Counted from the first letter of the stretch, positions 25,798-44,360 are shown. The stretch is DNA of 64,000 bases from a virus (IMGVR_UViG_3300020182_002648:32001-96000), one strand, 5' to 3'. Translations and numbers: made by a program. Notes: generated by a model not told the origin, from the sequence alone.

Positions 25798-28290
25798 ATG
25801 AGTATGAAGGACTTACCTGATTTAACAGTTGCCGGTCGCCGCGCAATGATGACAGCAAAGAAAATTGCAGTAGATTATAAGCATGATTTCATTACAACCG
25901 AACATGTGTTACTAGCTATATTAGACTGTGATAAGATAACGCCTGGATTAAAAGCCATTTCTAAGCAGTATGTCCAGATAGACGACTTTAAATCCTTTGT
26001 TATAACCAATTTACAAAAATACACTGGCCCGGAGAACATTGATATAGGCCTGGTCGAACCATCACCACGTACATTACAGATGCTAGCATTCGCTAGTGGA
26101 ATCGCCGGTGAGATGGGATCATCTCTTATTGATGTGGATCACATGTTACTAAGTATACTAGTAAGCGATTCAGGTAGTGGTAACAATTTATTCAGACTCA
26201 AAAATATAAATGTTGATGACCTTTACGAGATCATATATGAAGCTATCACTCCACGAGGAGTGAGGAAGAAACAAGACCAAAAACAAAAATCCGGTATTGG
26301 TGGCAGTCATACTAACACGGACACTGATGAGATCTATGAAGAGAGTATCATCGATAAATACGCAGCAAATTTAACTCAATTAGCGTTTAATGGTGAGATT
26401 GACCCTGTGATAGGTCGTGATGACGAAGTGCAAGATGCAATTCAGATACTATCTAGACGTACTAAGAATAACCCTGTGCTAGTAGGGGAGCCCGGTGTTG
26501 GTAAGACAGCTGTAATAGAACTACTAGCTCACAGAATAGTCAATGGAGACGTACCGCAAAACTTGAGAGGTAAACAGATATACACATTAGATTTAGCCGC
26601 TCTGGTAGCTGGTACTATCTACAGAGGTCAATTTGAGGAGAGGTTGAAGGAAGTTATATCATACGTCACACAACGAGAGGATCTAATTATATTTATTGAT
26701 GAGTTACACATGCTTGTTGGAGCTGGTGCAAGTACTGGTAGTATGGATGCTAGTAACATATTGAAGCCAGCGTTAGCAAGAGGCAAGTTGTCATGTATAG
26801 GAGCCACTACCACTAGTGAATATAAGGAGTTTATAGAAGGTGACGGAGCATTAGAGAGACGATTTCAATCAATACATGTAGGAGAACCTGGGACAGAAGA
26901 TTGTATTGCAATACTTCGTGGTATCAAAGAGAAATACGAAGACTATCACAATGTAAAATATAACAAATCCGTGATAAAAGAGATTGTAACATTGTGTGAA
27001 CGTTATATTGTCGATAAAAACTTTCCTGACAAAGCGATTGACATACTAGATGAATCTGGAGCAGTAGCAAAAGTGTCTAGATATCATGGTAATACGGAGG
27101 TACAGGCTCTTATAGATGATTTGTTACATGTTAGCAGAAGCAAGGAAAAGGCTGTAGAGACAGGTGAATATGATTTAGGCTTAGGATACAGAGAAACAGA
27201 GGAACAATTGGCTGTTAAGTTAGAAGAATGTATCGAGGAGAGAGAAGCTGGTGAACTATCTAGAAACATAAAGCCTTCCAGGATATCAATTGAAGATATC
27301 AGAGAGTTGATATCTAATAAATGTGGTGTTCCTGTTAGTAGCATGGAGGCTGATGAGCTGAAAGTGCTGTCAAATCTTGCTATCAGTATGAAGAACAAGG
27401 TGATCGGACAAGAAGATGGTATAGACAAGATATGTAATGCTATCAAAAGGTCTAGAGCTGGTGTGAGCAACCCTGATAAACCTATATGTTCGTTATTATT
27501 TTTAGGACCAACAGGCGTAGGCAAGACCTATCTTGCACATCAACTAGGAAAAGCTATGTTTCATGACGGTAATTTCAAACAATACGACATGTCTGAGTTC
27601 AGCGAGAAGCATGCCACTAGTAAATTGATTGGATCTCCTCCCGGCTACGTCGGATATGGTGAGGGAGGGAGCCTAACGGAGTATGTTAGACACAACCCGT
27701 ACTGTGTACTACTGTTCGATGAGATCGAAAAAGCTCATCCTGAGGTGCTACAACTGTTTCTCCAAGTGTTTGAGTACGGTTGCTTGACTGATAGTGAAGG
27801 ATTAGAGGTAAATTTTAAAAATACTATAATAGTACTGACAAGTAACATAGGTGCTCACAAGTTTGAGAAGCGACCTAATGTAGGATTTGGTACAGGAGAG
27901 ACATTAGAAGAAGGAGTAGTGGCGGAACTCAAGAAGATGTATGCTCCAGAATTTATAAATCGCCTTGATGAGGTGGTTATATTCAACAAATTGACAGACA
28001 AAGACATCACATCTATTTGTACCGGGCTGTTAAAGGGTGTGAAACGTACTCTCAAGAATAACAATGGCAAGATAATTAACTTTTCTAAGGATATCGCTGA
28101 TCATATTCTATCTAAATCAAGAGACGCAGCATATGGTGCTCGTCCTTTGAAGAGAATCATCACAGAATTTATAGAGACACCACTAGCTGAGTTCATTATA
28201 TCTAACGATTCATCCATCCGCAAGATAAATGCTGAGGTTGTTGATGAAGATATACAGTTTACTGCTGCTTCTGTTGTTCAGCGTACTTGA
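25798..28290 (+). CDS. clpC: ClpC-like AAA+ unfoldase
   Basis: Clp-N repeats (TEHVLL, DHMLL), two Walker A (GEPGVGKT, GPTGVGKT), UVR-like middle domain, VGF ClpP-docking loop, GARPL; TATAAATA at 25791. Confidence 0.9.
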   Translation: MSMKDLPDLTVAGRRAMMTAKKIAVDYKHDFITTEHVLLAILDCDKITPGLKAISKQYVQIDDFKSFVITNLQKYTGPENIDIGLVEPSPRTLQMLAFASGIAGEMGSSLIDVDHMLLSILVSDSGSGNNLFRLKNINVDDLYEIIYEAITPRGVRKKQDQKQKSGIGGSHTNTDTDEIYEESIIDKYAANLTQLAFNGEIDPVIGRDDEVQDAIQILSRRTKNNPVLVGEPGVGKTAVIELLAHRIVNGDVPQNLRGKQIYTLDLAALVAGTIYRGQFEERLKEVISYVTQREDLIIFIDELHMLVGAGASTGSMDASNILKPALARGKLSCIGATTTSEYKEFIEGDGALERRFQSIHVGEPGTEDCIAILRGIKEKYEDYHNVKYNKSVIKEIVTLCERYIVDKNFPDKAIDILDESGAVAKVSRYHGNTEVQALIDDLLHVSRSKEKAVETGEYDLGLGYRETEEQLAVKLEECIEEREAGELSRNIKPSRISIEDIRELISNKCGVPVSSMEADELKVLSNLAISMKNKVIGQEDGIDKICNAIKRSRAGVSNPDKPICSLLFLGPTGVGKTYLAHQLGKAMFHDGNFKQYDMSEFSEKHATSKLIGSPPGYVGYGEGGSLTEYVRHNPYCVLLFDEIEKAHPEVLQLFLQVFEYGCLTDSEGLEVNFKNTIIVLTSNIGAHKFEKRPNVGFGTGETLEEGVVAELKKMYAPEFINRLDEVVIFNKLTDKDITSICTGLLKGVKRTLKNNNGKIINFSKDIADHILSKSRDAAYGARPLKRIITEFIETPLAEFIISNDSSIRKINAEVVDEDIQFTAASVVQRT

Positions 28291-28561
28291 AATAATAAGC
28301 CATCATCTCATCTTTTACATTGTCTGTAATACGTTGAGAGAAATCTTTAAGTTCCACCGGGAATTCGCCATGTTTTTCTTTATATGCGCGTAATCCGGTC
28401 TCCACTTTGAGTGTTTTGTAACAGTCTATCATGTGCCTCATGTTATTCTCCTTGCTATCTGACATGACATCTTCATAACACACAGGGCACCATATCTCAT
28501 CCACACTTCTGATATCTAAATATTTGTCAATATAGTCGTGTAAATTTAAAGTTAGTCTCAT
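28259..28561 (-). CDS. Hypothetical protein (CxxC)
   Basis: ORF; overlaps end of clpC. Confidence 0.45.
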   Translation of the reverse strand: MRLTLNLHDYIDKYLDIRSVDEIWCPVCYEDVMSDSKENNMRHMIDCYKTLKVETGLRAYKEKHGEFPVELKDFSQRITDNVKDEMMAYYFKYAEQQKQQ

Positions 28562-28577
28562 TCGCCTAAGTACTTAT

Positions 28578-29012
28578 ATGGGTCCAGTAATAAACACAAT
28601 CATTGGCGCAGGTATTAAGCTAGGCGTCGTATTAATCAATGCATGGTTAGAAGGTAAACAGCAGAACCAGCTGTTGTTAGCAGCGAGAGACGAGAAAATG
28701 GTAGAGGCCATAATGAACAACCAAGACAAACAAGCTAGTGATCCATTTGTCAAGATGACTAGACGTATATTGTTCACTTGTATAACGTTTACATTATGCT
28801 ATCTCATGTTGTATTACGCTCTCAATCCTCACATAACATACGATGTGATTGTACCAAAAGGAGAGTCCCATCGATGGGGCATATTCTCATGGATAATAGG
28901 TGGTAAAGATTATGACGTTATAAAAATGACCGGAGGTTTGTTGTTAACCAGCTTCTTTGACTTGTGCTTCATGGTTATAGGTTTTTATGCTATACCTAGC
29001 AAGCGTAGATAG
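28578..29012 (+). CDS. Membrane protein, holin-like candidate
   Basis: 2-3 TM segments, basic C-terminus SKRR, TAAGTA late box at 28567. Confidence 0.45.
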   Translation: MGPVINTIIGAGIKLGVVLINAWLEGKQQNQLLLAARDEKMVEAIMNNQDKQASDPFVKMTRRILFTCITFTLCYLMLYYALNPHITYDVIVPKGESHRWGIFSWIIGGKDYDVIKMTGGLLLTSFFDLCFMVIGFYAIPSKRR

Positions 29013-29564
29013 TTACTTCTTCTTCTCAGCACTAGCACCAAACACTGCTACCAATTTGGCAATGATAGCTTCGCCATCACCTAGATCAGTAGGAGGTGCA
29101 ACAGGCATGACCAACTCATCACCATCATCCCAATCCTCATCACCATATCCATAATCCTGGTATATGTCAGCTCCTTGAGCATCAGCATCAATCTCTAACA
29201 CTTCTGTGGCTGCTGGTTCTGGTGGAGGTGTCCAATCTTCAGCTTCCAATTTATAAATGTCACTGAATATGATCCAGAGCAATTGCCTGGTGTGATCTTC
29301 ATCTTTAGTACGGGCAACGAAGTCTATAATGTCCCCCTTGGAGAACGCGCCATGCAAGGTTTGTATAGGATTGTCAATACTAGCGTAACACTTGTGTGCA
29401 ATATAATCATGAGCTAACGTGGCGCAATCTCTGATAACATAATAAGCACTCTTCTTTTTGATCTCCACACCTGTGTCAGGCTTGACCATGGCAATAGCAC
29501 TCGGTCCAACAAGGTTACGTTCCTTGATAGTACTCAACTCTAAGATCTTGCTCTCGAACTTCAT
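29013..29564 (-). CDS. Hypothetical protein, acidic C-terminus
   Basis: 183-aa ORF, N-terminal FESKILE. Confidence 0.7.
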   Translation of the reverse strand: MKFESKILELSTIKERNLVGPSAIAMVKPDTGVEIKKKSAYYVIRDCATLAHDYIAHKCYASIDNPIQTLHGAFSKGDIIDFVARTKDEDHTRQLLWIIFSDIYKLEAEDWTPPPEPAATEVLEIDADAQGADIYQDYGYGDEDWDDGDELVMPVAPPTDLGDGEAIIAKLVAVFGASAEKKK

Positions 29565-29847
29565 TACTTAGACTTCTTGTTATACTGCCTGGTTGGCTTG
29601 GTTTCTACACACTTGCATTTGAACTCTTCTAACTTGACCAACACATCCTGTATCGCTCCAGCCACCTGGTCCAATCGATCAGCAAAGCGATCCATTCGCT
29701 CATCCAACTCACTGGCACCACAACTGCCAGCCTCTTTAAGTTTATTATTCTCATTCTGCAGGGCATCATTGCGCTATTATTCTCATGCTGCAGGGCATCA
29801 TTGCGCTTGTACAGTTCATTCACTTGATTAATTTCCCAATCTTTCAT
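29564..29847 (-). pseudogene. 83-aa coiled-coil gene frameshifted by a 32-bp tandem duplication
   Basis: Removing one copy of 29743-29774/29775-29806 restores ...QNENNKLKEAG...YNKKSK*, whose TAA overlaps the next ATG. Confidence 0.75.
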
Positions 29848-29885
29848 ATAATAGATACTTAGTCTATCTGTATTGAAAATCCATG

Positions 29886-29943
29886 TAGCGCCGTAGGCGC
29901 TAAAAAAATCAGAAACCGCTAGCCGCCGGAGCCGTAGGCTCCG
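29886..29943. repeat. Two GC-rich hairpins sharing a GCC-GTA-GGC core
   Basis: TAGCGCC-GTA-GGCGCTA (29886-29902) and CGGAGCC-GTA-GGCTCCG (29927-29943). Confidence 0.85.
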
Positions 29944-29965
29944 CTAACCACCGCTGACCAACCGT

Positions 29966-30418
29966 TCAGTCTTTTCGGATGTTGTGCCCGATCAGATCTT
30001 CTGACTCTACCATGGCTTCTGCTGCTGCCCTGTTTATGGTGTCTTTGCGACTGGTCCTGTTGGCCATCCAGGCACATACCAGAATAGATAAGAATACAGA
30101 TCCAGTGATAACACCAAAGGTGAGTAACACGTCTGGACCATTGGAGGTTATGATTGCCTGTTCTGTGGCGTCTAGCATGCCATTGTTGTTCAGGTCTATC
30201 TGATTTAAGTCTATCTGATCTACTGGTATTTCAGAACCTTTGCCGGCTTGGCTATAAGATGTAGAGAAATTTTGCTGCTTCGCAGGACCGTCACCTGTTC
30301 TTAACTTGGCGCATCCTCCAAAGGCTCCTAACAACAACATCAACGCTCCCCATATCAGAGTTATGGTGCACAACTCTAGTGCCAGGTCAACTAATGTTCG
30401 GGTGTTATTCTTCTTCAT
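29966..30418 (-). CDS. Putative lipoprotein/membrane protein with EF-hand-like loop
   Basis: FGG-C lipobox-like, DLNNNGMLD, C-terminal TM. Confidence 0.55.
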   Translation of the reverse strand: MKKNNTRTLVDLALELCTITLIWGALMLLLGAFGGCAKLRTGDGPAKQQNFSTSYSQAGKGSEIPVDQIDLNQIDLNNNGMLDATEQAIITSNGPDVLLTFGVITGSVFLSILVCAWMANRTSRKDTINRAAAEAMVESEDLIGHNIRKD

Positions 30419-30422
30419 ACTA

Positions 30423-30524
30423 TTATTTACAATTGGTCAACACATAAATGATACCTGCTGTTAATATAATGTATATAATTAAATCTTTTATTAGTCCTAA
30501 ACCTTCTGTTATTTTGTCGCGCAT
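30423..30524 (-). CDS. 33-aa single-TM peptide
   Basis: MRDKITEGLGLIKDLIIYIILTAGIIYVLTNCK*, TAAGTA late box upstream. Confidence 0.5.
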   Translation of the reverse strand: MRDKITEGLGLIKDLIIYIILTAGIIYVLTNCK

Positions 30525-30549
30525 GTTAATGTTACTTATATCTTCTCAG

Positions 30550-30745
30550 TCACCAACCCGGGTGCACACAGGAAAGCGTTTCTGATTCCGCGAAAAAAAT
30601 TTGCGCAAAAAATAGGAGCATGCGTATCTGCAGGTACCTTATATCGCGCTCTATATAGGTGTGTCTCGCACGCCCATGTTCTCTATACACCGCCCGCTCT
30701 CTGAGCCCCGGTCGGCTTTCAGAAACCCACTTGCGTTTCAGAAAC
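30550..30745. other. GC-rich non-coding island with dense palindromes and TCAGAAAC repeats
   Basis: Boundary between late block and early cassette array; see findings. Confidence 0.6.
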
Positions 30746-30800
30746 AAAAAGGCGAGCCGCTAACAACAACGACCCGCCTGGATTATATTATGGTATAAAG
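30746..30800 (-). terminator. 3'-UTR terminator hairpin with antisense seed and loop (copy 1)
   Basis: CCATAATATAATCC-AGGCGGGTCG-TTGTTGTTAG-CGGCTCGCCT-TTTT. Confidence 0.85.
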
Positions 30801-30801
30801 T

Positions 30802-31164
30802 TTATCCTATCTCTACTAGAGTGTCTACAGTCTGTTCTTCTGCTATCACATCGTTCAATGTGTCACGTTCAGTCTTTAATAGTCTGATCTGATTGTATAG
30901 ACTATCTATCTTGTTCTTGATCTGTTCTACTCTCTTACCTTTATTCTTTTGTGCTAAGCCTTCTCTACTTACATATGTATCACAGAACTTATCGAAGTTG
31001 TTATCATACTTATTTGTTATCATATTGGCTAGATAGGTATGATGAAATTGTTTAGGTTGTTTAGTTACTGTGCAAATGGCTCGGTAGTGTTTCAGTTCGA
31101 TATCGGCCATTGTACCTTCGTCAGTGAGGAATGAATAAATTGTGGTGCTTGAGTTGTTGTCCAT
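30802..31164 (-). CDS. Hypothetical early protein
   Basis: 120 aa, AACAAC-type leader. Confidence 0.7.
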   Translation of the reverse strand: MDNNSSTTIYSFLTDEGTMADIELKHYRAICTVTKQPKQFHHTYLANMITNKYDNNFDKFCDTYVSREGLAQKNKGKRVEQIKNKIDSLYNQIRLLKTERDTLNDVIAEEQTVDTLVEIG

Positions 31165-31227
31165 AATAGTGATGTTGTGTGTGTTGTTAATTTCCGAATA
31201 AGGTGGGTAAAAAAGTGAGGGTCAACT

Positions 31228-33866
31228 TTACTTTTGAGTTGTGATAGTCACTGGACCTTTTGGAGCCAATCCGATTGTGTATGGGCTATGCTGAACGTTC
31301 CTGTCTAAATTGCTCTCTAGACTTTTCATGAATACTACTGCTGTGTCCATGTCTTGAGCGTTGATAAGAAGTTTTCCGTTTTTTAATATTTGATACATAA
31401 TATAGTGTTGTTGTCGATTGTTGTTATATTCTAATTATAGTCTAGTTTGTTTGATCAGGCAACTAATGTCTTATGCTCTCCGGAAGCTAATTCTTTGATC
31501 ATTCCTTCACCAACGAATCCGTGAGTGTGTCTGATTATGTCTTTATGAATTCTCATCTCACCTAACAATCCTGCTTGTTTGATCTCGCTGGTCACATCAC
31601 ATTCACCTCGTGCGTTGTAGCTTTCTTCCAAGCTTCTATCCAGTTTCAATATCTGCTGAGCTGAATTGGTCACAAGCTTTTGACTATGTTTGAGAAGATC
31701 TTTGTAATGCTTTTCCCACATTTCGCTTTGATTCTGCCACATGTTGGCGTGATGAGAATGAATGTCTAGAGTGTTGTTAGGTTCCATAATATGTGTTGTT
31801 AATTGTTGTTATATTCTAATTATAAGCTATTCACGTCGATTGCGCAACTAGTTTCTTTTCAACTTGTAAATCCATCAAGCTAGCAACATACTCATGAGCA
31901 TTCATCAAGCATTCTGCTGGTTCATCTTCGTCATGTAGTTCGTTGTCGAATCCTGTTCTGCTGATCACCACTCTTTCTCCTTTTTCTAGTAAAGATTGAA
32001 TGTATTCTAATGTTAATGCTATTTTAAATTCGGATGGTTTGGTCATATTAATTTGTTGTTAGTTCTAATTTGCGAAGATCTCTTCTCAAGAAGAAAACTC
32101 GATCCATATTCTTGTCTGATGGCCAGAAATGTAATGCTCTTTCTGCCTGCCATAATCGATGTCTGATTGCTGTTATTTTGTTCATACCTTAATTATAGTC
32201 TTTTTCTTTTGATTGCGCAACTTGTTTTTGTTCGTTATGTTTGATCATCGTCAACACTTCTCTGAACAATCCCATCATTTCCTCATGTCTCTTATCGCGC
32301 GCCCTATTCCTTTCAAGTGCCACCATATCAACTTGTACTGGCTCAACTTGATTCTGCTGCGGATGCACTTGAGATGCATTTGTATTTGATCTGTTGTAGC
32401 CATTATACAAGCCCCAGAGAAAAGCTGCGATCGCTAGACCGATATAGAATATATGTTTTTTCATTGATCAATCTATTTGTTGTTAGGATTGTCGAAAAGA
32501 TCAGTTTTGCTGGTCAGGAGATCCCAAATGAGAACAATTGGAATTAACATTATTGGTAAGAGTAATAGTATATCGTAGTTCATAATATGATTATATGATG
32601 TTTTGTCAGAATGCGCAACTTACTTTAAAATGTCTTCAATTTCAGTCATCTTACGAATGATATGATCACAAGCGATTTCGTCATATCCAGTTTTAGGTTG
32701 CCCTTTGTTGGTTGTGACTGTCTCTTCTAAACATTCCAGAGCAGCTGACACTTTGAGCATCATTGCTTTCACATTGTCATATTTGTCTTCTGCCTCACAG
32801 AATTTAGTGTAAAAAGGAGAAGGTTCAATTGGTGTGTCCATTGGCATAATATAATGTTGTTAATTGTTGTTAAAATCTAATTATAAGTGAAACTAAGCTG
32901 AAGCGCAACTTTTATCCGAAGTTTCTAAATTCAAACCGGTCCTGGCGCTCAGCAGTGTCTGCCGGGCAAAGTCCTAGATCCTCTGCAATCTCTTTGATGT
33001 CTAGAAATCGATCCATCATTTCCAGACCGTATGTTCCTAAATTTTCGTGAATGTGTATTTCCAATTGTTCCCAGATGTTTTCGTCCATAATATGTGTTGT
33101 TAATATTGTTGTTATGATCTAATTATAAGTGATACTCCGGTAAAGGGCAACTAATCGCTGTCCTTTATAAAATCTGAATATTTGTAATGTTCAACACCAC
33201 TCACGAGATTTTCGTGCACAATATCAAATATTTCAGATTCAGTATAGCCTGAAAGGTCTTGTTCCAATTTAAGTTCGCGAATTAGTTGTTGTACTAATAA
33301 TTTTAAGTAATCCATAATATAATGTTGTTAATTGTTGTTATAATATAATTATAAGCTATTTTGAAGGTATCGGCAACTTAATCTTCATCTCGTATCTCGA
33401 TATCACGATCCACGACAATTCTGTTGCCTGTTTCGTCGTCATAACACAAGCTCCAGCAGCCCTCTCCAGTTAGCTCTATCAAGTAATAATTTTTTGTATT
33501 GTCCATAATATAATGTTGTTAATTGTTGTTATAATATAATTATAAGCTATTCTGATGAAATGAGCAACTTAATCTTCATCATATTTCATATCCACATCCA
33601 ATACAGCACAAATCTGCCATATCATCATCTCTTTCTCTTGATCATCATTCCCATCAGTTGATGTGATGATATCGGCAATCTCTTTCAATTTATTTTCCAT
33701 CTGAATTGTCGTCCTTTATGAAATCTGAATAGCTGTAATGCTCTATCATACTCTCAACATTTTCCATAACACATTCAAATACATCTTCATCAGACATATC
33801 TGAACAGTTGAACTGTTCTTTTTGGAACTCAATAGCTCCCTTAATAAATAATTTTAAATGATCCAT
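31228..33866 (-). other. Array of about 12 small early genes, most with their own promoter and leader (31228-31398, 31455-31787, 31831-32046, 32048-32185, 32189-32464, 32473-32583, 32620-32847, 32912-33088, 33151-33315, 33378-33506, 33569-33700, 33690-33866)
   Basis: Short ORFs translated by hand; ATGs sit at the end of the conserved leader or just after a -10 box, and several stops overlap the next AGTTGC -35 box. Confidence 0.75.
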
Positions 33867-33908
33867 AATATAATGTTGTTAATTGTTGTTATAATATAAT
33901 TATAAGCT
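33311..33908 (-). repeat. Three identical 47-bp -10/leader/start units (33311, 33502, 33862)
   Basis: tccataatataatgttgttaattgttgttataatataattataagct exact in three places; near-identical copies at about 31784, 32845 and 33084. Confidence 0.95.
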
Positions 33909-34216
33909 CTTTATTATGATCAGGCAACTATTATCCAGGCTTGTTATATATATCTCGGAACAGTCCTCCCCATATCCGTCATATCATGCTGAAAATAAGA
34001 CTATCCTTATACAGTTACTTTTGAGGCTGTAATAGGAATAGCTATTCCATTTGCGTTTCATTATTGTTCATACCTAATTATAAGATATTCTCACAAAATG
34101 AGCAACTTTCTAGATAGGAGGAAGTTTCTACCTATTCAGAAAACAGGAGGAATCTGTAAACCCTTAATATTCAACAACCAAATCCGTTTTCTTCCTAGAT
34201 GTTGCAATTTTCCTAT

Positions 34217-34729
34217 TCATATCATATCCTTCCAATTGGTCACATCAACAAAAGGCGCGATAATATCAGCCTCCAATATGCTAATCTTCTGATACACACC
34301 ATTCTCCAGGTGCCCGGCCCCGCAAACCAACGTAGAACACCCGATTCCATTGTTACAATTAGTCACATCAACAAAAGGCGCGATAATATCAGCCTCCAAT
34401 ATGCTAATCTTCTGATACACACCATTCTCCAGGTGCCCGGCCCCGCAAACCAACGTAGAACACCCGATTCCATTGTTAACCAGCTCGTCATCGTGCATGT
34501 CTATCATGTGCATGATCACTCTGTTGTGGTCCTTAGTAGGTATGCTCGTGGTGCACAGGCGGTCTCTGAGACACAGATACAATGGAAAGCCAACGTATTC
34601 CCCTACTGCTAGGTTCTTGGCATCCCAACTCCAGCTATCACCAGGGGTACCCGGACTAGCGCCTTCTGTATCTTTGTAGTGGTGCAATGGGTCTATGTGT
34701 GGATCGTCGGTGTTATCATCGTCTATCAT
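34217..34729 (-). CDS. Hypothetical protein with in-frame 41-aa duplication
   Basis: 123-bp tandem duplication 34233-34355/34356-34478. Confidence 0.65.
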   Translation of the reverse strand: MIDDDNTDDPHIDPLHHYKDTEGASPGTPGDSWSWDAKNLAVGEYVGFPLYLCLRDRLCTTSIPTKDHNRVIMHMIDMHDDELVNNGIGCSTLVCGAGHLENGVYQKISILEADIIAPFVDVTNCNNGIGCSTLVCGAGHLENGVYQKISILEADIIAPFVDVTNWKDMI

Positions 34730-34996
34730 ATAATTATATAGGAGATCTCTAGAGAGGGCAACAAATTCGCGACAAATTCTGTTCAGGTCAGTTACCGTCC
34801 CCGTTATACTATCAGAGCCCTGTATACCCCGTATATCCTTTGTTCCAATTGTCTCCCAATACCTATCTATACCTTCTTACCTGGAACCCTTTCACTTTTG
34901 TTTAAAATACATATGTTTTTGTTCAAATACTATATGTTTTCGTTCGATCGTTCTACGCTATGATAACCTTTGTATAGTATACCCCTATATATAATT

Positions 34997-35105
34997 AACC
35001 GTTTATTATTTCGACTCGGGTCTGTGTCGCTTGTTACTTGTTGTATGATGTGTACGTATAGTCTACACAAGATATATTTGAACCGCTTATTATTTCGAGT
35101 CGGGT
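34997..35105. repeat. 25-bp direct repeat in non-coding DNA
   Basis: aaccgtttattatttcgactcgggt (34997-35021) vs aaccgcttattatttcgagtcgggt (35081-35105). Confidence 0.8.
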
Positions 35106-35684
35106 TTAACCAAATGGGTAACCTTGTTCAAGTAATTCTTGGTATTGTTCATCAGAGTAATAGTCCCAATCCCATCGTGTGCATATCTCTCTCATCACTT
35201 CTAAAAAGTAAAACACGTTTGGATGATTGCCGTCAGGATTGCCCATGCTTTTCACCAGGCCTGGATGTTTGTTTATTATGTCAGTTGCTCTGATGTCTGT
35301 ATTGTTCTTGTGTTCACGGGTCAACATGCCTTCAAATGTATCCGCACGTTCATCATCTTTGAGCCTGAAGCTGGTGATACTCAATTGTCGTTGTGTTGCA
35401 TTTTGTTGGTTGGTCTCACGCAACCCGGCTTGTGTGAATTGTTTATCACCGGCACGTTTCGGGGTCATCGCTTGATACAACACGAAATCGCTATCGATCA
35501 ACCGTCGCTTCTGTTCATGCGTGTCTGAGATCACATGATCAACTTGATCACCAAACTGCGGGCTCCTGGGCCATTCATGGACTTGGAAAACATTACAGAA
35601 CTTCGCATCTGCTTCGGGTTTCAATATTCTGATATACTTGCACAGAGCCATAATCTGACAGTTTCCGAGTGTTGTTATTACCAT
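35106..35684 (-). CDS. WcbI-like polysaccharide biosynthesis protein
   Basis: N-terminal GNCQ and late NHP motif. Confidence 0.45.
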   Translation of the reverse strand: MVITTLGNCQIMALCKYIRILKPEADAKFCNVFQVHEWPRSPQFGDQVDHVISDTHEQKRRLIDSDFVLYQAMTPKRAGDKQFTQAGLRETNQQNATQRQLSITSFRLKDDERADTFEGMLTREHKNNTDIRATDIINKHPGLVKSMGNPDGNHPNVFYFLEVMREICTRWDWDYYSDEQYQELLEQGYPFG

Positions 35685-35704
35685 ACGATATTACTTATCG
35701 TTCT

Positions 35705-36124
35705 CTACTTGCCGTTCTCTATTTGCTGTATGATCTTTCTCAACCCACTGCTGCTATAACGATGGCTTCTACTATTGTAAGCTATTTCTATATTATGTTG
35801 GGCGCAGAGTTCTTTGCCGCTGAAGTCTACATCTCTATAATCATCTCCAATCACTCGAACATCAGGCTTGTATGTTAATAAGATGTCAAATAGATCGCTT
35901 TCTAAATTATAAGGTACAATCTCGTCTACATACTTACATCCAGCTAATTGGATATAACGTTCCACGATTGATTGTACAGGCGCATTTTTCTCTGGTCTTT
36001 CCACTTGAGGATCCACATGCAAGCCGCATATCAACCAATCGCAACATTGTTTAGCATCTTTGAGCATTGCAACGTGACCTGCATGTAACAGATCAAATGT
36101 GCTGAATGTGACAGCTGTTTTCAA
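35705..36124 (-). CDS. tagD: Glycerol-3-phosphate cytidylyltransferase-like
   Basis: FDLLHAGH (HxGH), CKYVDEIVPY, GDDY, YSSS. Confidence 0.85.
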   Translation of the reverse strand: MKTAVTFSTFDLLHAGHVAMLKDAKQCCDWLICGLHVDPQVERPEKNAPVQSIVERYIQLAGCKYVDEIVPYNLESDLFDILLTYKPDVRVIGDDYRDVDFSGKELCAQHNIEIAYNSRSHRYSSSGLRKIIQQIENGK

Positions 36125-36427
36125 TCAGAAAGGACTGCCTAAATCACCGGCAAAGTATTTGTGTCTGTCATCCTCGCCCATGTCAACAAGTGCTTCAAGC
36201 ACATGAATGTGAGCGTTCAGTTGTTTGTCTGAAAAGCCTTCATATTTGATAGCAATATCGTCCAGGTCTCTTTGCTGGTCCATCATGTTACCAATCTTGA
36301 TGTCACGATCGTCAAGTTCGTCATCAAAGTCATGTTCTGGTGGATTGTGTTCATCACCTGTCATACGTGCCATGCTGCTGTCTTCGTAACTTTCCCAGAT
36401 CAATTGATATTCGTTCTTCTTTGCCAT
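36125..36427 (-). CDS. Acidic late protein, candidate internal virion protein
   Basis: TAAGTA box 36433-36438; N-terminal QLIWESY. Confidence 0.55.
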   Translation of the reverse strand: MAKKNEYQLIWESYEDSSMARMTGDEHNPPEHDFDDELDDRDIKIGNMMDQQRDLDDIAIKYEGFSDKQLNAHIHVLEALVDMGEDDRHKYFAGDLGSPF

Positions 36428-36458
36428 ACCTTTACTTATTCAGACAGTATGTATTTCT

Positions 36459-37430
36459 CTATGCCCAACTTGATGTATCAACTCGTAAATGTTCAGCAAG
36501 GTCTTTGATTTGACTCTCTCGGTTGAAGTATTCGTAACATCTGGTCATCAATCTAGATAGATCACTTGGCATGAGTCTCATGTTTCTGATGTCATCGTAC
36601 ATTTCGAACACGCTAGCGTTCCAGTTCCAGTCTTCTAATAATTTGTTAATCTTTGTATCGCTCATAATTGTGTTTGTTTGTTAGTTTACTTGAAAAGGGC
36701 TCTTGTTATATATCTCTTTGAATTTCAGCTTTTTAATGTCTGTTCTGTGATCTTGTAACACTTTGTCAAATTCAACTTGTGCTTGTTCTAAATCACGTAA
36801 TGCTTCTTTCACCACCCATCTCACATCATCAAGAGGAGTTTCAGGAGTGTGTTTGTCCAGAAAAGCCAATCGACCTGTAGCGCTACTGATCGCTTTGAGC
36901 ACGTTGATGCTAGGGTAATTGCTAGGTTTGTCGTTATCTTTGTCGTTCATAATATAATTATAGTGTGTATTGTCAGAATGCGCAACTTGAGTTGAGCGTC
37001 AATCCCATTTGTATCCAATGTCCAAGGTTCTGCCGAAATGACTCAGTGAGCTCAATGCATGTTTGACATGAAATTTCAAGTCCATGTCTCGAGAGTCCAG
37101 TGCAAACTCTTGCAGGTCTCGCAAGTAAGCGTAACTGTTGTAGTATGCTTCACGCACCTTGCCGCTTGTGAGTTGTTCTTGTGCTCGTTGAGCTGTTGCT
37201 GCCTCAACATCCTCCGCAGTCAAGTCATCATCTAAAACTGTTCCATCATTATCTGTATTGTTTGTCATAATTGTATCCTATTTTTTCATTTTCTTCTCTG
37301 CGAGAGTCTTTGCCTTTTCTAGTCCAAATTGACCAACCATTCGTTTGAATGCTTCCCAATTCAATCTAGGTTGAGGCAAACTCTTCCAGGTTTTCATTCT
37401 CAATTCGGCTTTGTCTTTTGCGTTATCCAT
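36459..37430 (-). CDS. Four small hypothetical early genes
   Basis: ORFs 36459-36665, 36681-36950, 36999-37268 and a 50-aa ORF starting near 37430; AGTTGC/TATAAT promoters. Confidence 0.6.
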
Positions 37431-37467
37431 AAGTTAATTATAACATATATTCATCAGATCGGCAACT

Positions 37468-37525
37468 AAAAAGCCCGCCTGCTAACAACAACAGACGGGC
37501 TTGGATCATATTATGGATACGAAAT
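37468..37525 (-). terminator. 3'-UTR terminator hairpin with antisense seed and loop (copy 2)
   Basis: ATCCATAATATGATCC-AAGCCCGTCTG-TTGTTGTTAG-CAGGCGGGCTT-TTT. Confidence 0.85.
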
Positions 37526-37819
37526 TTATGCGTGAGTCAATGAATTACTATCAATTCCTAAAATCCTATCATCAGCGAATTGGACATAGTATCTAGTGAA
37601 CATACGTGCGTTGACACCTCGTCCTCTAATTGTACCATCAGCTGCACAACTGACTGCGCGTACTTTGGCCACCCATCCTGTTCTCAAATGAACTGGTCCG
37701 CTAGCCCAATGAGCTGGATCAGTCACTTTGACCATTGCTCCTGGTTTGAACTTGCACCTCTTGTTGGTCCAATTTGTTTTGATGTTTGCCTTGATGTCTC
37801 TTAAGTTTGTTACTTTCAT
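37526..37819 (-). CDS. Basic KOW/SH3-like protein (97 aa)
   Basis: FKPGAMVKVTD...GWVAKV...YYVQF pattern; start at 37819 after AAC-rich leader. Confidence 0.5.
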   Translation of the reverse strand: MKVTNLRDIKANIKTNWTNKRCKFKPGAMVKVTDPAHWASGPVHLRTGWVAKVRAVSCAADGTIRGRGVNARMFTRYYVQFADDRILGIDSNSLTHA

Positions 37820-37883
37820 AAATGTTTGTTTGTTAATTGATGTTATGTTTTGATTATAAGTTATTTGATAATGAACGGCAACT

Positions 37884-38729
37884 TTAGAACCATTTACCTT
37901 TCTTGTTTTTCTTCTTGAAGGGGTTTCCAATATCTTTGACTGGATTCACAATAACTTCTTTGATTGGATTCACAATAACTTCTTTGACTGGTTCCACTAT
38001 TTTATCTTGAACAGGTGCAACAATGTTGTCATTGACAAGATCCTTGGTCACGTCAATTGCTTCTTCAACTGGCTCAACAGTAGCATCGTAAACTGGATCA
38101 ACGTCAACTGTGACAGTACCTTCAGTCTTCACTCCTACAATCAAAGCGAGATTCACTGAACCTCCAATAGTGATCGGTTTACTATCATCATTCCACTCCG
38201 GTACTTGATAACCTCCTCCAATTGTACCACCAGCTTGAGCACCTACACTAACGCTTGTGTTGTTAGTCACTGCGACTCCTAAACTTTTGTTAGTATAATA
38301 CGTCCTGGTACCTGCTCCTGCTTTAGCTCCAGCAATTGCTCCACCCTCAAACCAACAACCATCCATGCCTACATTAGCTTGTGCTCCTGCCCATGCATAC
38401 AGTTCGGCATAAGCATATATTTCAGCACCAGCAGCATGATCACCATTCTCGTATTCTAATTTAGCGGCCACTTCTGCGCGTAATTTGGCTTCTGCGACTG
38501 CCTCAATATATAAATTGTCTTCTCTGTATTCAACACCATATTTGGCTGATGCACTAGCTTCTGCATTTAACAATGCTTGACCAGTCAGCACCCCACCGTC
38601 AGGATCAGTCCATTGACCTTGAGCGTTGACATATATACCAGCGCCTGCTCTGTACTCCCCGTTAAGGCTTGTGTCTGTATTGTCAGCATTGGCTCCCGCT
38701 GACGCGTCTGTATTTACATTTGTACTCAT
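37884..38729 (-). CDS. Gly/Ala-rich amphipathic beta protein, late
   Basis: Alternating A/G-x strands; C-terminal 8-aa repeats (VIVNP.KE); TAAGTA at 38735. Confidence 0.6.
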   Translation of the reverse strand: MSTNVNTDASAGANADNTDTSLNGEYRAGAGIYVNAQGQWTDPDGGVLTGQALLNAEASASAKYGVEYREDNLYIEAVAEAKLRAEVAAKLEYENGDHAAGAEIYAYAELYAWAGAQANVGMDGCWFEGGAIAGAKAGAGTRTYYTNKSLGVAVTNNTSVSVGAQAGGTIGGGYQVPEWNDDSKPITIGGSVNLALIVGVKTEGTVTVDVDPVYDATVEPVEEAIDVTKDLVNDNIVAPVQDKIVEPVKEVIVNPIKEVIVNPVKDIGNPFKKKNKKGKWF

Positions 38730-38985
38730 GTTATTACTTATTGAGTATATTTGTTAATCAATCTTATGATAGTATATACAATCAATCCATATACTGTGGC
38801 TCCAAGAAGCTCTGGTAAGTATGTATATATATGTTCTACGAACTGTATGACTGCTTGAGCGTCACTCTCTGTAATTGTTGGTTGGTTGTTCATATAGTTA
38901 TGTTCGACTTTGATACCATTCCCATAATATGATCAATACCAAGAATGTACACATACCATATGCAAACACTTCAATCATCATGTGA

Positions 38986-41900
38986 TCAACTGTCGTGTAG
39001 AAATTGTTGTGCAGCCAACTGCGCGATGTCAACACCTGGTACATTGACACTAGGTGTGTCTCTGGTGATGATTTTGTACATTTCTCTAACCTCTCTGATT
39101 CTCCTGAGGTTTCTCGCGACTGTGCTTTGTTCTGTTACATTCCGTGGCCGGTTTGGCTTGTGTGAATTGTTGTTCATCTCATCCAGGAACAAAAATGCTC
39201 CTTCGAGTTGTGCTAATTTCAAACTCATTTCTGCTACAATGTTAGGTGTGTTGTTATTATCGCTCATGATATAATTATAGTATATATTCTCAGCATGTGC
39301 AACTATTTCTTAATTATATGAATATCAACTAGTTAGAGGAAACCCACATGTGACTTTTCTCTAAGTAATTAAATGTCAACAGGTTACACAAAAAACCAGC
39401 TGGTTTATTTTCTAAATATATACCTATCAACATGATAGAAGATGTTAGCTCCAACAAATTGAAAGGCTATCACACTGGCCCACATGGACCATTGTAACAC
39501 TTCCGTGAACAGATACATGCATGGGTAACAGACTATAAATCCTGCCTGCCATCTCAGATTGTATTTTAAATATCTTTTGAGCATCGTGTTCGCTTTCTAC
39601 TAACTTTGTTGTGTCGTTGTTGTTTTGTTTTGATCACTCCTGGCAATGTCAATCGTCTACCATACAGAGCATGATATTGATTGGGTCGATACTTGATAAG
39701 CCAATCATTGAACCTCAATTGCTCACGTGTGGTAGATGGTTCTTCAGAATACTCCACACTCAACTGATGATACATGCTCACTTTATGATCTTTATCACTG
39801 AACATTCGCTTCCATGTTCTCAATTTGTAATCCTCATCACCAGCCACTCCTCGAAGGTTCACGCTGACATGGTACGATCTCTGAGTCTCTTCAATCAAGA
39901 AATCCATCTCGTCGTCAGTCAGTCCTTGCATGTGCTTCACCTTCATCATGTATATGAAACTTTCTTGCCTGTTATGAGGCCATGGCTTGTCCTTGACGAA
40001 CACAGTGTGCTTCATGGTGCGAGGGTTGTATTGACAACCATCACTCAATTGTATTGTCTGGCTCAATTGCTTGTGGTCTGTGATCCGCCCATCAGTTCTG
40101 CAATCTTGCCAACTAGATGTAGATCATCAGCGGTTATAGTGAATGAGTTGGTGAACCAATCACTGATTTTCACCTCTTTGATCATTGTAAGGTATGCATC
40201 GTAAGCTTCGTATTCGTCTATCATAATATTGTGTTTGTTGTTATTTGTTAAACTTTAATTATAACGTAAGAAATTATAAAGCGCAACAGTAAATATTTGT
40301 ATGATACATCATGTAACAATTGAGCAAATAATGTCCTTAATCGTCGTCGCTACTGTTCTGGTCACTTTTTTTTAAAAACCAATCTGACACTAGATCTGGA
40401 CTGAACACTTCTTGAGCTGTTTCCGGGTGAAAACCAACCGCAACTAACAGTCCCCTGAAGTGTTCGGCTGCTGCTGTCACATCACCTTCTGTAAATTCTA
40501 CGCTAGCGGTAGTTTGTGTTGTTTCTATCGTTATTTTCATTTTATAAAATCTATGACCATTTGTGCTAATTTATAACTCTTCGCCCCAACGTTCCATTCA
40601 GTGATCTGTTCTGGTTCTAATCCATCTTCACCGGCGTAAGTTTTGCATTGTTTGTAATCGTAAATTGTCACAACACCGTAAGTGGTACCTGACCTCTCAA
40701 CTTCAACATGCCACTCGCTGCTGGTCTTGTACTCATCTGTTCTAATTGTTGGTTCGCCAAAAAGATTGACCAGATTGTGATAACTTGTGGTGATGTAATC
40801 TTGTAAAGAGGTTCCGTTCACATGCTTGCTGGCTTTGTGGCAGCTTATAAATGAGAGTCTATCGCTAGTGGTTGTTGAATTGTGTTCCATTGCTATAATA
40901 TATTTGTTGTTATGTGTTAAACGCAATTTACATATCGCCTTGAGATCTGAACTTGAATACCGGCGTCACGTTTTGTATTTAACTCTTGTGTTATGCTGCT
41001 TCTGTCATTTGCATTGTTGACGTATACATTTGTACCGTAATGTGTGATCGCAGTCCACATCACAAAAAAACTATCGCTAGCAGGCTTATGCTCTGATACA
41101 AACTTGAATGTATCACCTGATTCTAGAGATTCGATCGTCGATAAGAAGTGCTTTGTTTTAATCATAACTTAATTATATGATCATATAGCACTAAGCGCAA
41201 CTTAACATGGAAACAATATATCCCATCCTTCGGCAGTGGTACCACTTTGGATCAATTCACGTTGATCAACATCAAGTAATGGAAATATATCTTGAATAAG
41301 CTTGTCACGACCATGATCAAGCCATTCTCTCCATTCATTTGCGTATACATTCACATTGCTTATAACTTCAGTCACTGGACACTTTGTTGTTAACTGTATC
41401 AATTCATGGGGACCCGTGCGGAGAGTCTCTGTTGCGATGATATGTTTAGTTAGTGACATGTGATAATTACTCGTCAAGAATAAACTTAGCTACAAACCAA
41501 GCTGTAAATACCAAAACTGGTGGTGTGAATATCATTATGACAATAAATATCTCTGGCCCTGTCATGTTATTTCCAGTCAAAGCTGATTAACAATTGATCA
41601 GGAGCATCTCTGAGTTCTGCTTCTTGAGCAAGATGAAATGTACCATCACCATATCTTCGATCAACTGGAACACCGCTCTTGTTAAACCCCGGACTGATTC
41701 CTTTCCATTGATTCTCGAAGCTGCAATCTTTTTTATCTCCGCTGATGAACCGGACTTCGCTATCAAGTGTTGTACCAGTCAGCTGAAGAGCCTCGTCAAT
41801 CATCGATTGTAAATCCCTTACAGTGATCATATCAATGTGTGATAACGCCTGCTAGATTTTGCTGCATGGTCAACTCCTTAGCATGATCAATACGTTCCAC

Positions 41901-44076: not shown

Positions 44077-44360
44077 GAGTTTATGATGATCAGAGTGGCT
44101 ATCAATGTGCCGGTCAGGATGACGTAAGCGGTGATTTGTAGTATAAATTTGCTGTTAAGCTTCTGCATATCGTAAGTTGATGCGATGCTTTTGTTTGCGA
44201 TCAATTTCTTTTAATCGGTTGCGGTGAGGCCGGCTCTTTGTAAAAAGTATTTTTTGTCTGATTTTCATAATATGTATTGTTGTTATATATTAATTATAGT
44301 CGATCATGCGCGGAAGTGCAACTTCTGAGGTAATCTTTGGGTGCGCGACTAAATAATTAT

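Follow-up and report, generated by a model that had tools for sequence, protein, structure and literature searches.

A 64,000-nucleotide (nt) stretch of viral DNA (hereafter the window; bases 32001-96000 of the 146.8-kb IMG/VR viral contig IMGVR_UViG_3300020182_002648, estimated completeness 65%) carries two terminator elements, T1 and T2, whose short 5′ flanks are complementary to the leaders and start codons of early genes. T1 forms the end of the mRNA of gene X (30802-31164), which encodes a conserved 120-amino-acid early protein. Comparison with about 50 related loci leads us to favor, with slightly better than even confidence, the view that T1 is the window copy of a conserved anti-start element in the 3′ untranslated region (UTR) of gene X, and that it would hide the start site through a 5′-3′ fold-back like that of the bacterial icaR mRNA. 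Folding in cis is preferred because ~50 divergent loci have kept the flank, which mirrors the start of the gene that it terminates and changes together with that start between clades. Judged by these comparisons, the complementarity to leader and AUG is real, non-random and under selection. Coordinates are window positions throughout, and both elements, like the other window features located below, are on the minus strand.

An earlier note on this DNA had described two minus-strand elements that follow stop codons, with stems that differ in sequence yet pair and with an apex and flank in common, and both the coordinates and the predicted folds confirm this arrangement. In T1, the stop codon of gene X (30802-30804) is followed by the anti-start flank CCAUAAUAUAAUCC (30780-30793; single-stranded in the predicted fold), by a terminator hairpin that closes the early gene cluster (30750-30779; predicted stem of 12-13 base pairs (bp) with a UUGU tetraloop, −20.8 kcal/mol) and directly thereafter by a U run (30745-30749). 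In T2, the stop codon of gene Y (37526-37528) precedes the flank CCAUAAUAUGAUCC (37503-37516; AUCCAUAAUAUGAUCC in its longer extent, 37503-37518) and a hairpin of −25.6 kcal/mol (37471-37502), again with a U run after it. Common to the two are the 14-nt 5′ flank CCAUAAUAU[A/G]AUCC and an identical 10-nt apical motif, UUGUUGUUAG (30760-30769 in T1, 37482-37491 in T2); the stems differ at many positions with pairing retained. T1 and T2 are two of only ~8 convincing intrinsic terminators in the contig, and the unit of flank and hairpin is present in two copies only in 146.8 kb, compared with ~45 promoters.

The matches to early leaders are exact, as the earlier note had claimed. Over 12 nt, the T1 flank is complementary to three leaders, those of the genes with starts at 33315, 33506 and 33866; the T2 flank has 11 complementary nt with the leaders of the genes starting at 31787 and 33088, and the apical motif 9 nt with UAACAACAA at the leader 5′ end. 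Of 20000 composition-preserving shuffles, a single one attained the flank match, 146 attained that of the loop and none attained the two together, which excludes chance as the source of the pair. The 10-nt loop of the earlier description survives as ten identical nucleotides, but its apex is predicted to be a UUGU tetraloop above three weak pairs (U·G, U-A and G·U) and so must partly open before contacting a leader.

The flank extends far beyond the window. Close relatives were collected via a ClpC-like gene 2.5 kb away, and two of them, L131 (88% ClpC identity) and L134 (93%), carry a T1 homolog with flank and apical motif on a different compensated stem; L131 also has T2. In L138 and L139 (~60% ClpC identity) the hairpin is unrelated and the motif absent, yet the flank still stands ahead of the hairpin, reading UCCAUAACUGAUCC. 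An alignment of the gene X protein, searched against metagenome and viral contigs blind to the RNA element, yielded 86 loci, 57 of them non-redundant. The flank core CCAUAA is kept in 50 of the 57, as the UCCAUAACUGAUCC form in 42 and as the AU-rich form of the window in 8, and every one of these 50 flanks precedes a GC-rich hairpin (−17 to −27 kcal/mol) of very diverse sequence, many with polyG/polyC stems.

Mean pairwise identities taken from a 35-sequence alignment of whole mRNAs place the flank core at 1.00, compared with 0.71, 0.65 and 0.48 at codon positions 2, 1 and 3, respectively. The difference between the core and codon position 3 indicates strong selection on the flank itself. A complete 222-kb relative has the flank once, 3′ of gene X, which makes the ancestral arrangement a single element per genome that matches the gene carrying it. 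A further match in that relative, with 2 mismatches at 108354, has no surrounding stop codon, hairpin or U run and was rejected as a copy.

What the flank matches in these loci is the beginning of the gene whose end it marks. In all 50, it is the reverse complement of the gene X start region over 7-11 contiguous bp centered on the AUG. In the window, the start region UAUUAUGG (31161-31168) forms 8 contiguous bp with the T1 flank, a pairing that has a predicted probability (P) of 0.98 and is present in the minimum-free-energy fold. Throughout the wide clade (C)AGUUAUGGAA lies opposite UUCCAUAACUG, with the core GUUAUGG against CCAUAAC, while in the window's clade UAUUAUGG lies opposite CCAUAAUA. 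Between the two clades both sides of the helix have changed and pairing is kept: position −3 is G-C in the wide clade and A-U in the window's clade, and position −4 is A-U in the former and U-A in the latter. Moreover, one sub-clade has a leader with a Shine-Dalgarno-like AGGA, and there the flank's 3′ end reads UCCU opposite it.

Duplex energies agree with this pattern. Relative to shuffled start regions, the duplex of each flank with its own start has a mean z of −5.4, and 94% of loci fall below −2 standard deviations. Wide-clade flanks form duplexes of −12.5 kcal/mol with starts of their own clade versus −8.2 kcal/mol across clades, and window-clade flanks −8.9 versus −7.2 kcal/mol. The earlier note had anticipated that seed (its term for the flank) and leader would co-vary among relatives, and this is borne out for positions −3 and −4, which change together with the gene's own start between the two clades. 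Its matching of the A/G difference between the T1 and T2 seeds to leader variants is not supported, as among relatives the A/G state of the seed does not go with the variant of the leader.

Predicted folds of complete gene X mRNAs, from −30 to the terminator in 50 loci, contain the same helix. The probability that the AUG pairs with CAU of the flank has a mean of 0.95 and a median of 0.99, the pair is present in the minimum-free-energy fold of 48 of 50 loci, and shuffling the flank core reduces the probability to 0.01.

Several observations weigh against the fold-back. Only short, AU-rich helices are involved (in the window, that of gene X has 8 bp and about −8 kcal/mol), equilibrium folds are a weak guide to the state of translated mRNAs, and the long-range helix is so far a prediction from sequence and folding. 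The co-variation amounts essentially to one split between two clades, and many loci vary at −4, −5 and +4 without compensation. RNAalifold predicted no pairs in the whole-mRNA alignment, in which 5′ ends and hairpins are badly aligned, and co-variation was assessed by anchored pair counts in its place. Also, many genes in these phages have the start context UUAUGG, and two separately conserved sequences could account for part of the match. Finally, UGAUCC, the best-conserved 3′ half of the flank, is partnerless in start regions that lack a Shine-Dalgarno sequence, and its conservation nonetheless implies that something else constrains it too.

This last segment bears on a different explanation, in which the flank is a site for a protein or nuclease (the gene X product, an RNA chaperone, or a processing or stabilizing factor) and the complementarity to the start is secondary. 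As (C)UGAUCC (window 30780-30785 and 37503-37508; loci L140-L225) it is almost invariant and unpaired in most predicted duplexes, which makes it the most conserved part outside CCAUAA and one without a partner in most loci; we take it to be the complement of GGAUCA beside the anti-Shine-Dalgarno at the 3′ end of 16S rRNA. Also as expected of a specific binding site, the flank core is more conserved than codon second positions. However, such a site would leave unexplained the AUG-centered complementarity in all 50 loci, the concordant changes at −3 and −4, and the anti-Shine-Dalgarno match of the sub-clade, and we judge this explanation quite unlikely.

Under the fold-back reading, once the 3′ end has been transcribed the flank would pair with the mRNA's own AUG region at its 5′ end, closing the molecule and hiding the start codon from ribosomes. 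Initiation would be lowered, the protein output per transcript capped, and translation limited to the time before the 3′ end is made; the timer role put forward in the earlier note is an inference. The helix between flank and start may also stack on the terminator stem, 2 nt away in the window, to give a longer helix.

In the window's clade the leader is spread across many early cassettes, and the T1 flank has more than one potential partner. About 15 early promoters precede a C/A-rich leader of ~30 nt, nearly always without a Shine-Dalgarno sequence. The earlier figure of about 15 leader genes holds only for the whole contig, where 7 leader-bearing genes lie in the cluster upstream of T1 and are joined by gene X and ~6 scattered genes, of which only some match the flank. 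No other terminator was detected in a scan between the leader promoters and T1, so transcripts from all of the nested promoters should end at T1.

Folding of four such transcripts places the first start codon on the T1 flank in each case. For the gene at 31398 (leader and start 31395-31433, after its own early promoter; transcript from 31427, 683 nt) P is 0.87, for the gene at 31787 (31784-31818; from 31812, 1068 nt) 0.999, for the gene at 32847 (32844-32879; from 32873, 2129 nt) 0.98, and for the gene at 33088 (33085-33121; from 33115, 2371 nt) 0.99, while internal AUGs of the nested transcripts have P values of ~0 with the flank. The three leaders with the 12-nt match lie further upstream, at 33312-33347, 33503-33538 and 33863-33898. 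When the flank was shuffled in the two shorter transcripts, the unpaired fraction of the first start region rose from 0.12-0.19 to 0.59-0.72. Thus, one T1 3′ end might close on whichever leader is first among the nested transcripts. It tells against this extension that a shuffled first start region does not make the flank shift to the next start; the preference for the first cistron is unexplained, and this is a caution against over-reading equilibrium folds.

The same clade would have added a second contact, between the hairpin apex UUGUUGUUA and the 5′-terminal UAACAACAA. The apical motif is confined to the window's clade, where it stays the same on four different compensated stems; complementarity between loop and leader is absent from the wider family. 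Since UAACAACAA begins one base after the predicted 5′ end of leader RNAs, the apex faces the very beginning of the transcript. The order of flank, stem and apex is colinear with that of start, linker and 5′ end, so the two contacts could coexist. This clade retains leader matches of 7-13 nt.

The reach of these matches also raises the possibility of action in trans, through 3′-UTR-derived small RNAs (sRNAs): hairpin-protected fragments of T1 and T2 would silence ~10-15 leader genes via flank and loop and so act as a shut-off timer. A protected 3′ fragment may indeed persist and act in this manner. Enterobacterial 3′-UTR-derived sRNAs of the Hfq type have a conserved seed directly ahead of an intrinsic terminator, and T1 and T2 share this layout, with a conserved single-stranded seed directly before the terminator. 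The c4 antisense RNA of phages P1 and P7 covers a ribosome-binding region by means of two short sites and shares an operon with its target; unlike c4, neither T1 nor T2 has an Rfam match, as a search of positions 28000-40000 at E ≤ 1 returned nothing, the C4 family included.

When treated as isolated fragments, T1 and T2 bind best to leader starts, with cofold free-energy changes (ΔΔG) of −9 to −15 kcal/mol. Leader genes rank at the top for both elements, as the earlier note had predicted, and for T1 they hold six of the top seven places. For example, the gene at 31787 gives −9.5 kcal/mol with T1 and −11.7 kcal/mol with T2, and the best T2 partner, the gene at 33088, gives −14.7 kcal/mol. Leaders that match the seed are also found elsewhere in the contig, downstream of promoters at 44322 and 51834. 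The colinear two-site order fits trans pairing as well, and only a trans role could give a function to T2, which has no partner in cis (see below).

However, the flank contains no consensus early promoter (GTTGC-N17-TATAAT), and no −35 element was seen upstream of its TATAAT-like hexamer. The ancestral state, one copy per genome that matches its own gene, is likewise at odds with a trans regulator, as are the lack of T2 next to gene Y homologs at 56-64% identity, the untracked A/G variants and the restriction of the loop contact to one clade. We therefore hold sRNAs acting in trans to be rather unlikely as the main explanation. Between the two options offered by the earlier note, trans sRNAs or 5′-3′ mRNA contacts, the comparative data favor the contacts, and no promoter for a separate sRNA was found.

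A more ambitious proposal combines the two modes. T1 and its relatives might form a clade-wide 3′-terminal clamp, whose tail would grip the 5′ end (by the apex) and the start codon (by the flank) of each early transcript, so that the first cistron would be translated only until the terminator is reached, after which the protected fragment would silence the remaining leader mRNAs in trans. We consider this proposal speculative and its truth doubtful. If it were true, one short element would set the dose and shut-off time of a whole early gene class.

T2, which terminates gene Y (37526-37819; 97 amino acids), does not fit the cis model and is a further point against it. Neither the gene Y mRNA nor the longer transcript starting at promoter 39303 contains a partner for the T2 flank. 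Gene Y homologs at 56-64% identity (L229-L232) have no T2-type element, and their stop codon runs directly into the next promoter; T2 is present only in L228, whose gene Y is 99% identical, and in L131. A 13-nt perfect complement of the T2 flank is located at 38922-38935, within a 27-codon hydrophobic open reading frame (ORF) 1.4 kb upstream in T2's transcription unit, compared with ~0.004 such matches expected in the contig by chance.

Directly after T2 is an early promoter (37437-37466) that drives a leaderless gene at 37430. The synteny of the window with L228 breaks at this very point: in L228 (803-2300), T2 is followed by four opposite-strand genes where the window has the leaderless gene, and the break looks like a recombination joint at the terminator/promoter unit. 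T2 is best seen, on this sequence comparison, as a young copy of a T1-type tail that was placed by shuffling mediated by terminator/promoter units, in the manner of the phage composites called PeSLs. That its flank and apex are those of T1 despite the diverged stems suggests that they still matter, possibly in trans. T2 would then either act in trans or do nothing beyond termination.

PeSLs are terminator/early-promoter stem-loop composites of T4-like phages, described as recombination sites in the DNA and as terminator/promoter units (PMC2839356, PMC4122927). The features described here resemble PeSLs in being intergenic GC-rich terminator stem-loops beside strong sigma-70-like early promoters in regions of small orphan genes. 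This likeness allows another explanation, that T1 and T2 are ordinary PeSL-type terminators and that the inverted pieces of leader are by-products of cassette recombination with no role at the RNA level. In its favor, T2 together with promoter 37437-37466 has the PeSL layout (PMC2839356), many hairpins of the family have PeSL-like polyG/polyC stems, and synteny with the 99% relative L228 is lost right after T2. However, a neutral remnant would not stay invariant amid the turnover of stems and 48% third-position identity. Inverted repeats of 9-12 bp are also shorter than the homology patches (<50 bp) that T4 recombination needs according to the PeSL paper (PMC2839356), and so are unlikely to be kept alike by recombination. 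We regard this explanation as very improbable.

The elements also differ from PeSLs in several respects. T1 has no adjoining promoter. Complementarity to start regions is not described for PeSLs in the consulted passages of PMC2839356 and PMC4122927, and the conserved part here is the single-stranded flank rather than the stem. PeSLs are a motif repeated many times beside orphan genes, whereas the unit described here has two copies in the contig and one in the 222-kb relative.

In place of a joined early promoter of the kind that follows T2, T1 is followed by a promoter-less, GC-rich spacer of ~200 nt (30540-30748) with two copies of GUUUCUGAAA. A motif resembling CUCAGAG recurs downstream of the hairpin in relatives. 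As a structured RNA the spacer is unsupported (z = −0.99).

The two elements might instead be features of the plus strand, either a gene start or an antisense promoter. There is a weak sigma-70-like match across T1 (9/12), and the plus strand carries a leader-like sequence ending in ATGG. The earlier note had named plus-strand starts of real genes as an outcome that would overturn its proposal. At T1 and in L131 the corresponding ORF has only 2 codons, and at T2, where it is antisense to gene Y, it has 27; across the family the antisense ORF ranges from 2 to 106 codons and thus is not conserved. The phage's own early-promoter consensus is also absent there, making a plus-strand function extremely improbable.

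The contig is from an uncultured marine phage that is T4-like in its gene content, which includes a gp23-type major capsid protein, a gp13 homolog, an S77 prohead protease, QueF and a ClpC-like ATPase. Identity between the capsid protein and its cyanophage counterparts does not exceed 35%, there is no close cultured relative, and the related contigs come from marine metagenomes. A megablast search with 8 kb against GenBank phages gave no matches. In IMG/VR, the exact two-part element pattern also gave none, and relatives sought singly via the ClpC-like ATPase, gene Y or gene X were absent or too distant. A 17-nt leader pattern found lone matches there in contigs that look unrelated, which were taken as chance.

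Gene X encodes proteins of 105-123 amino acids across the family, and an AlphaFold2 model of it (predicted local distance difference test score of 89) shows a sheet of four strands together with two short helices and, at the C terminus, a long one. This confident model has no fold match in the PDB, no Pfam family scores above the curated cut-off for the protein, and PHROG has no matching family. No homolog was found in GenBank phages.

Early transcription in the window is organized around ~45 near-consensus promoters (GTTGC-N17-TATAAT), all on the minus strand between ~23 and 61 kb. For about half of them an ATG lies only 6-8 nt downstream, so many early mRNAs should be leaderless. The leader resembles the region of a leaderless promoter in which ATG has become ATA, followed by an insert of ~26 nt and then a second start context. 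This pattern is visible in the cassette at 33863-33928 and its sisters at 33503-33568 and 33312-33377.

Two other features of the same region were observed. A 170-amino-acid ORF (34217-34729) contains a tandem duplication of ~123 nt (34240-34490), in which 67-nt stretches of both copies are identical. Next to it, ~350 nt of non-coding sequence (34750-35105) hold two copies of a ~23-nt motif (CCCGA.UCGAAAUAAUAA.CGGUU) and several TATA-rich blocks. This stretch might be another promoter class or an origin.

We know of no phage mRNA whose 3′ UTR pairs with its own 5′ UTR. Among bacterial mRNAs, a review names two, icaR and hbs, in which the 3′ UTR pairs with the molecule's own 5′ UTR (PMC7821165). 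In icaR of Staphylococcus aureus, a motif in the 3′ UTR pairs with the Shine-Dalgarno sequence of the same mRNA, blocks the initiation complex and makes a substrate for RNase III (PMC3868564). In hbs of Bacillus subtilis, a 14-nt contact between 5′ and 3′ ends protects the mRNA (PMC7821165). The gene X element resembles both in that a short motif of the 3′ UTR complements the mRNA's own start region, a likeness read here from sequences and their predicted folds.

The differences are also considerable. In contrast to the two bacterial examples, the 3′ UTR here is only ~25 nt long, with the motif directly against the terminator hairpin. Unlike that of icaR, the pairing is centered on the AUG rather than on a Shine-Dalgarno sequence, because most of these leaders have none. 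The element is found in phages and is conserved across a wide clade; several functional bacterial 3′ UTRs, including that of hbs, are not conserved even among species that are close relatives (PMC7821165). In one clade, moreover, it would serve nested transcripts from many promoters and add a second, loop-borne contact.

Burial of start sites is familiar from the same phage family. In longer transcripts of the T4 genes e, soc, 49 and I-TevI, the AUG or the Shine-Dalgarno sequence is buried in a local helix and binding of the 30S subunit falls (PMC3014915). The logic is shared by the element described here. In the T4 genes, however, the pairing strand is situated just upstream, within read-through transcripts, and late transcripts are free of it, whereas the partner here is a 3′ UTR 0.35-2.4 kb downstream.

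The earlier note did not recognize its proposal as a described element. This holds insofar as no Rfam family matches, but pairing between 5′ and 3′ UTRs (icaR, hbs) and PeSL composites had both been described. The kind of mechanism proposed is therefore known from bacteria. What appears new, as far as sequence comparison can tell, is the phage context, the 25-nt tail at a terminator, the AUG-centered pairing without a Shine-Dalgarno sequence, the conservation across a family, the use by nested transcripts and the loop contact.

The element is defined by comparative data over ~50 loci, needs only ~25 nt and a terminator, and is predicted to act on starts that lack a Shine-Dalgarno sequence. Since the promoters are close to the sigma-70 consensus, reporters in E. 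coli offer a direct test of it without a cultured phage. Should the proposal hold, large lytic phages would be able to dose early genes and switch them off with no need for a protein repressor, and one 3′ end could govern a set of nested transcripts.

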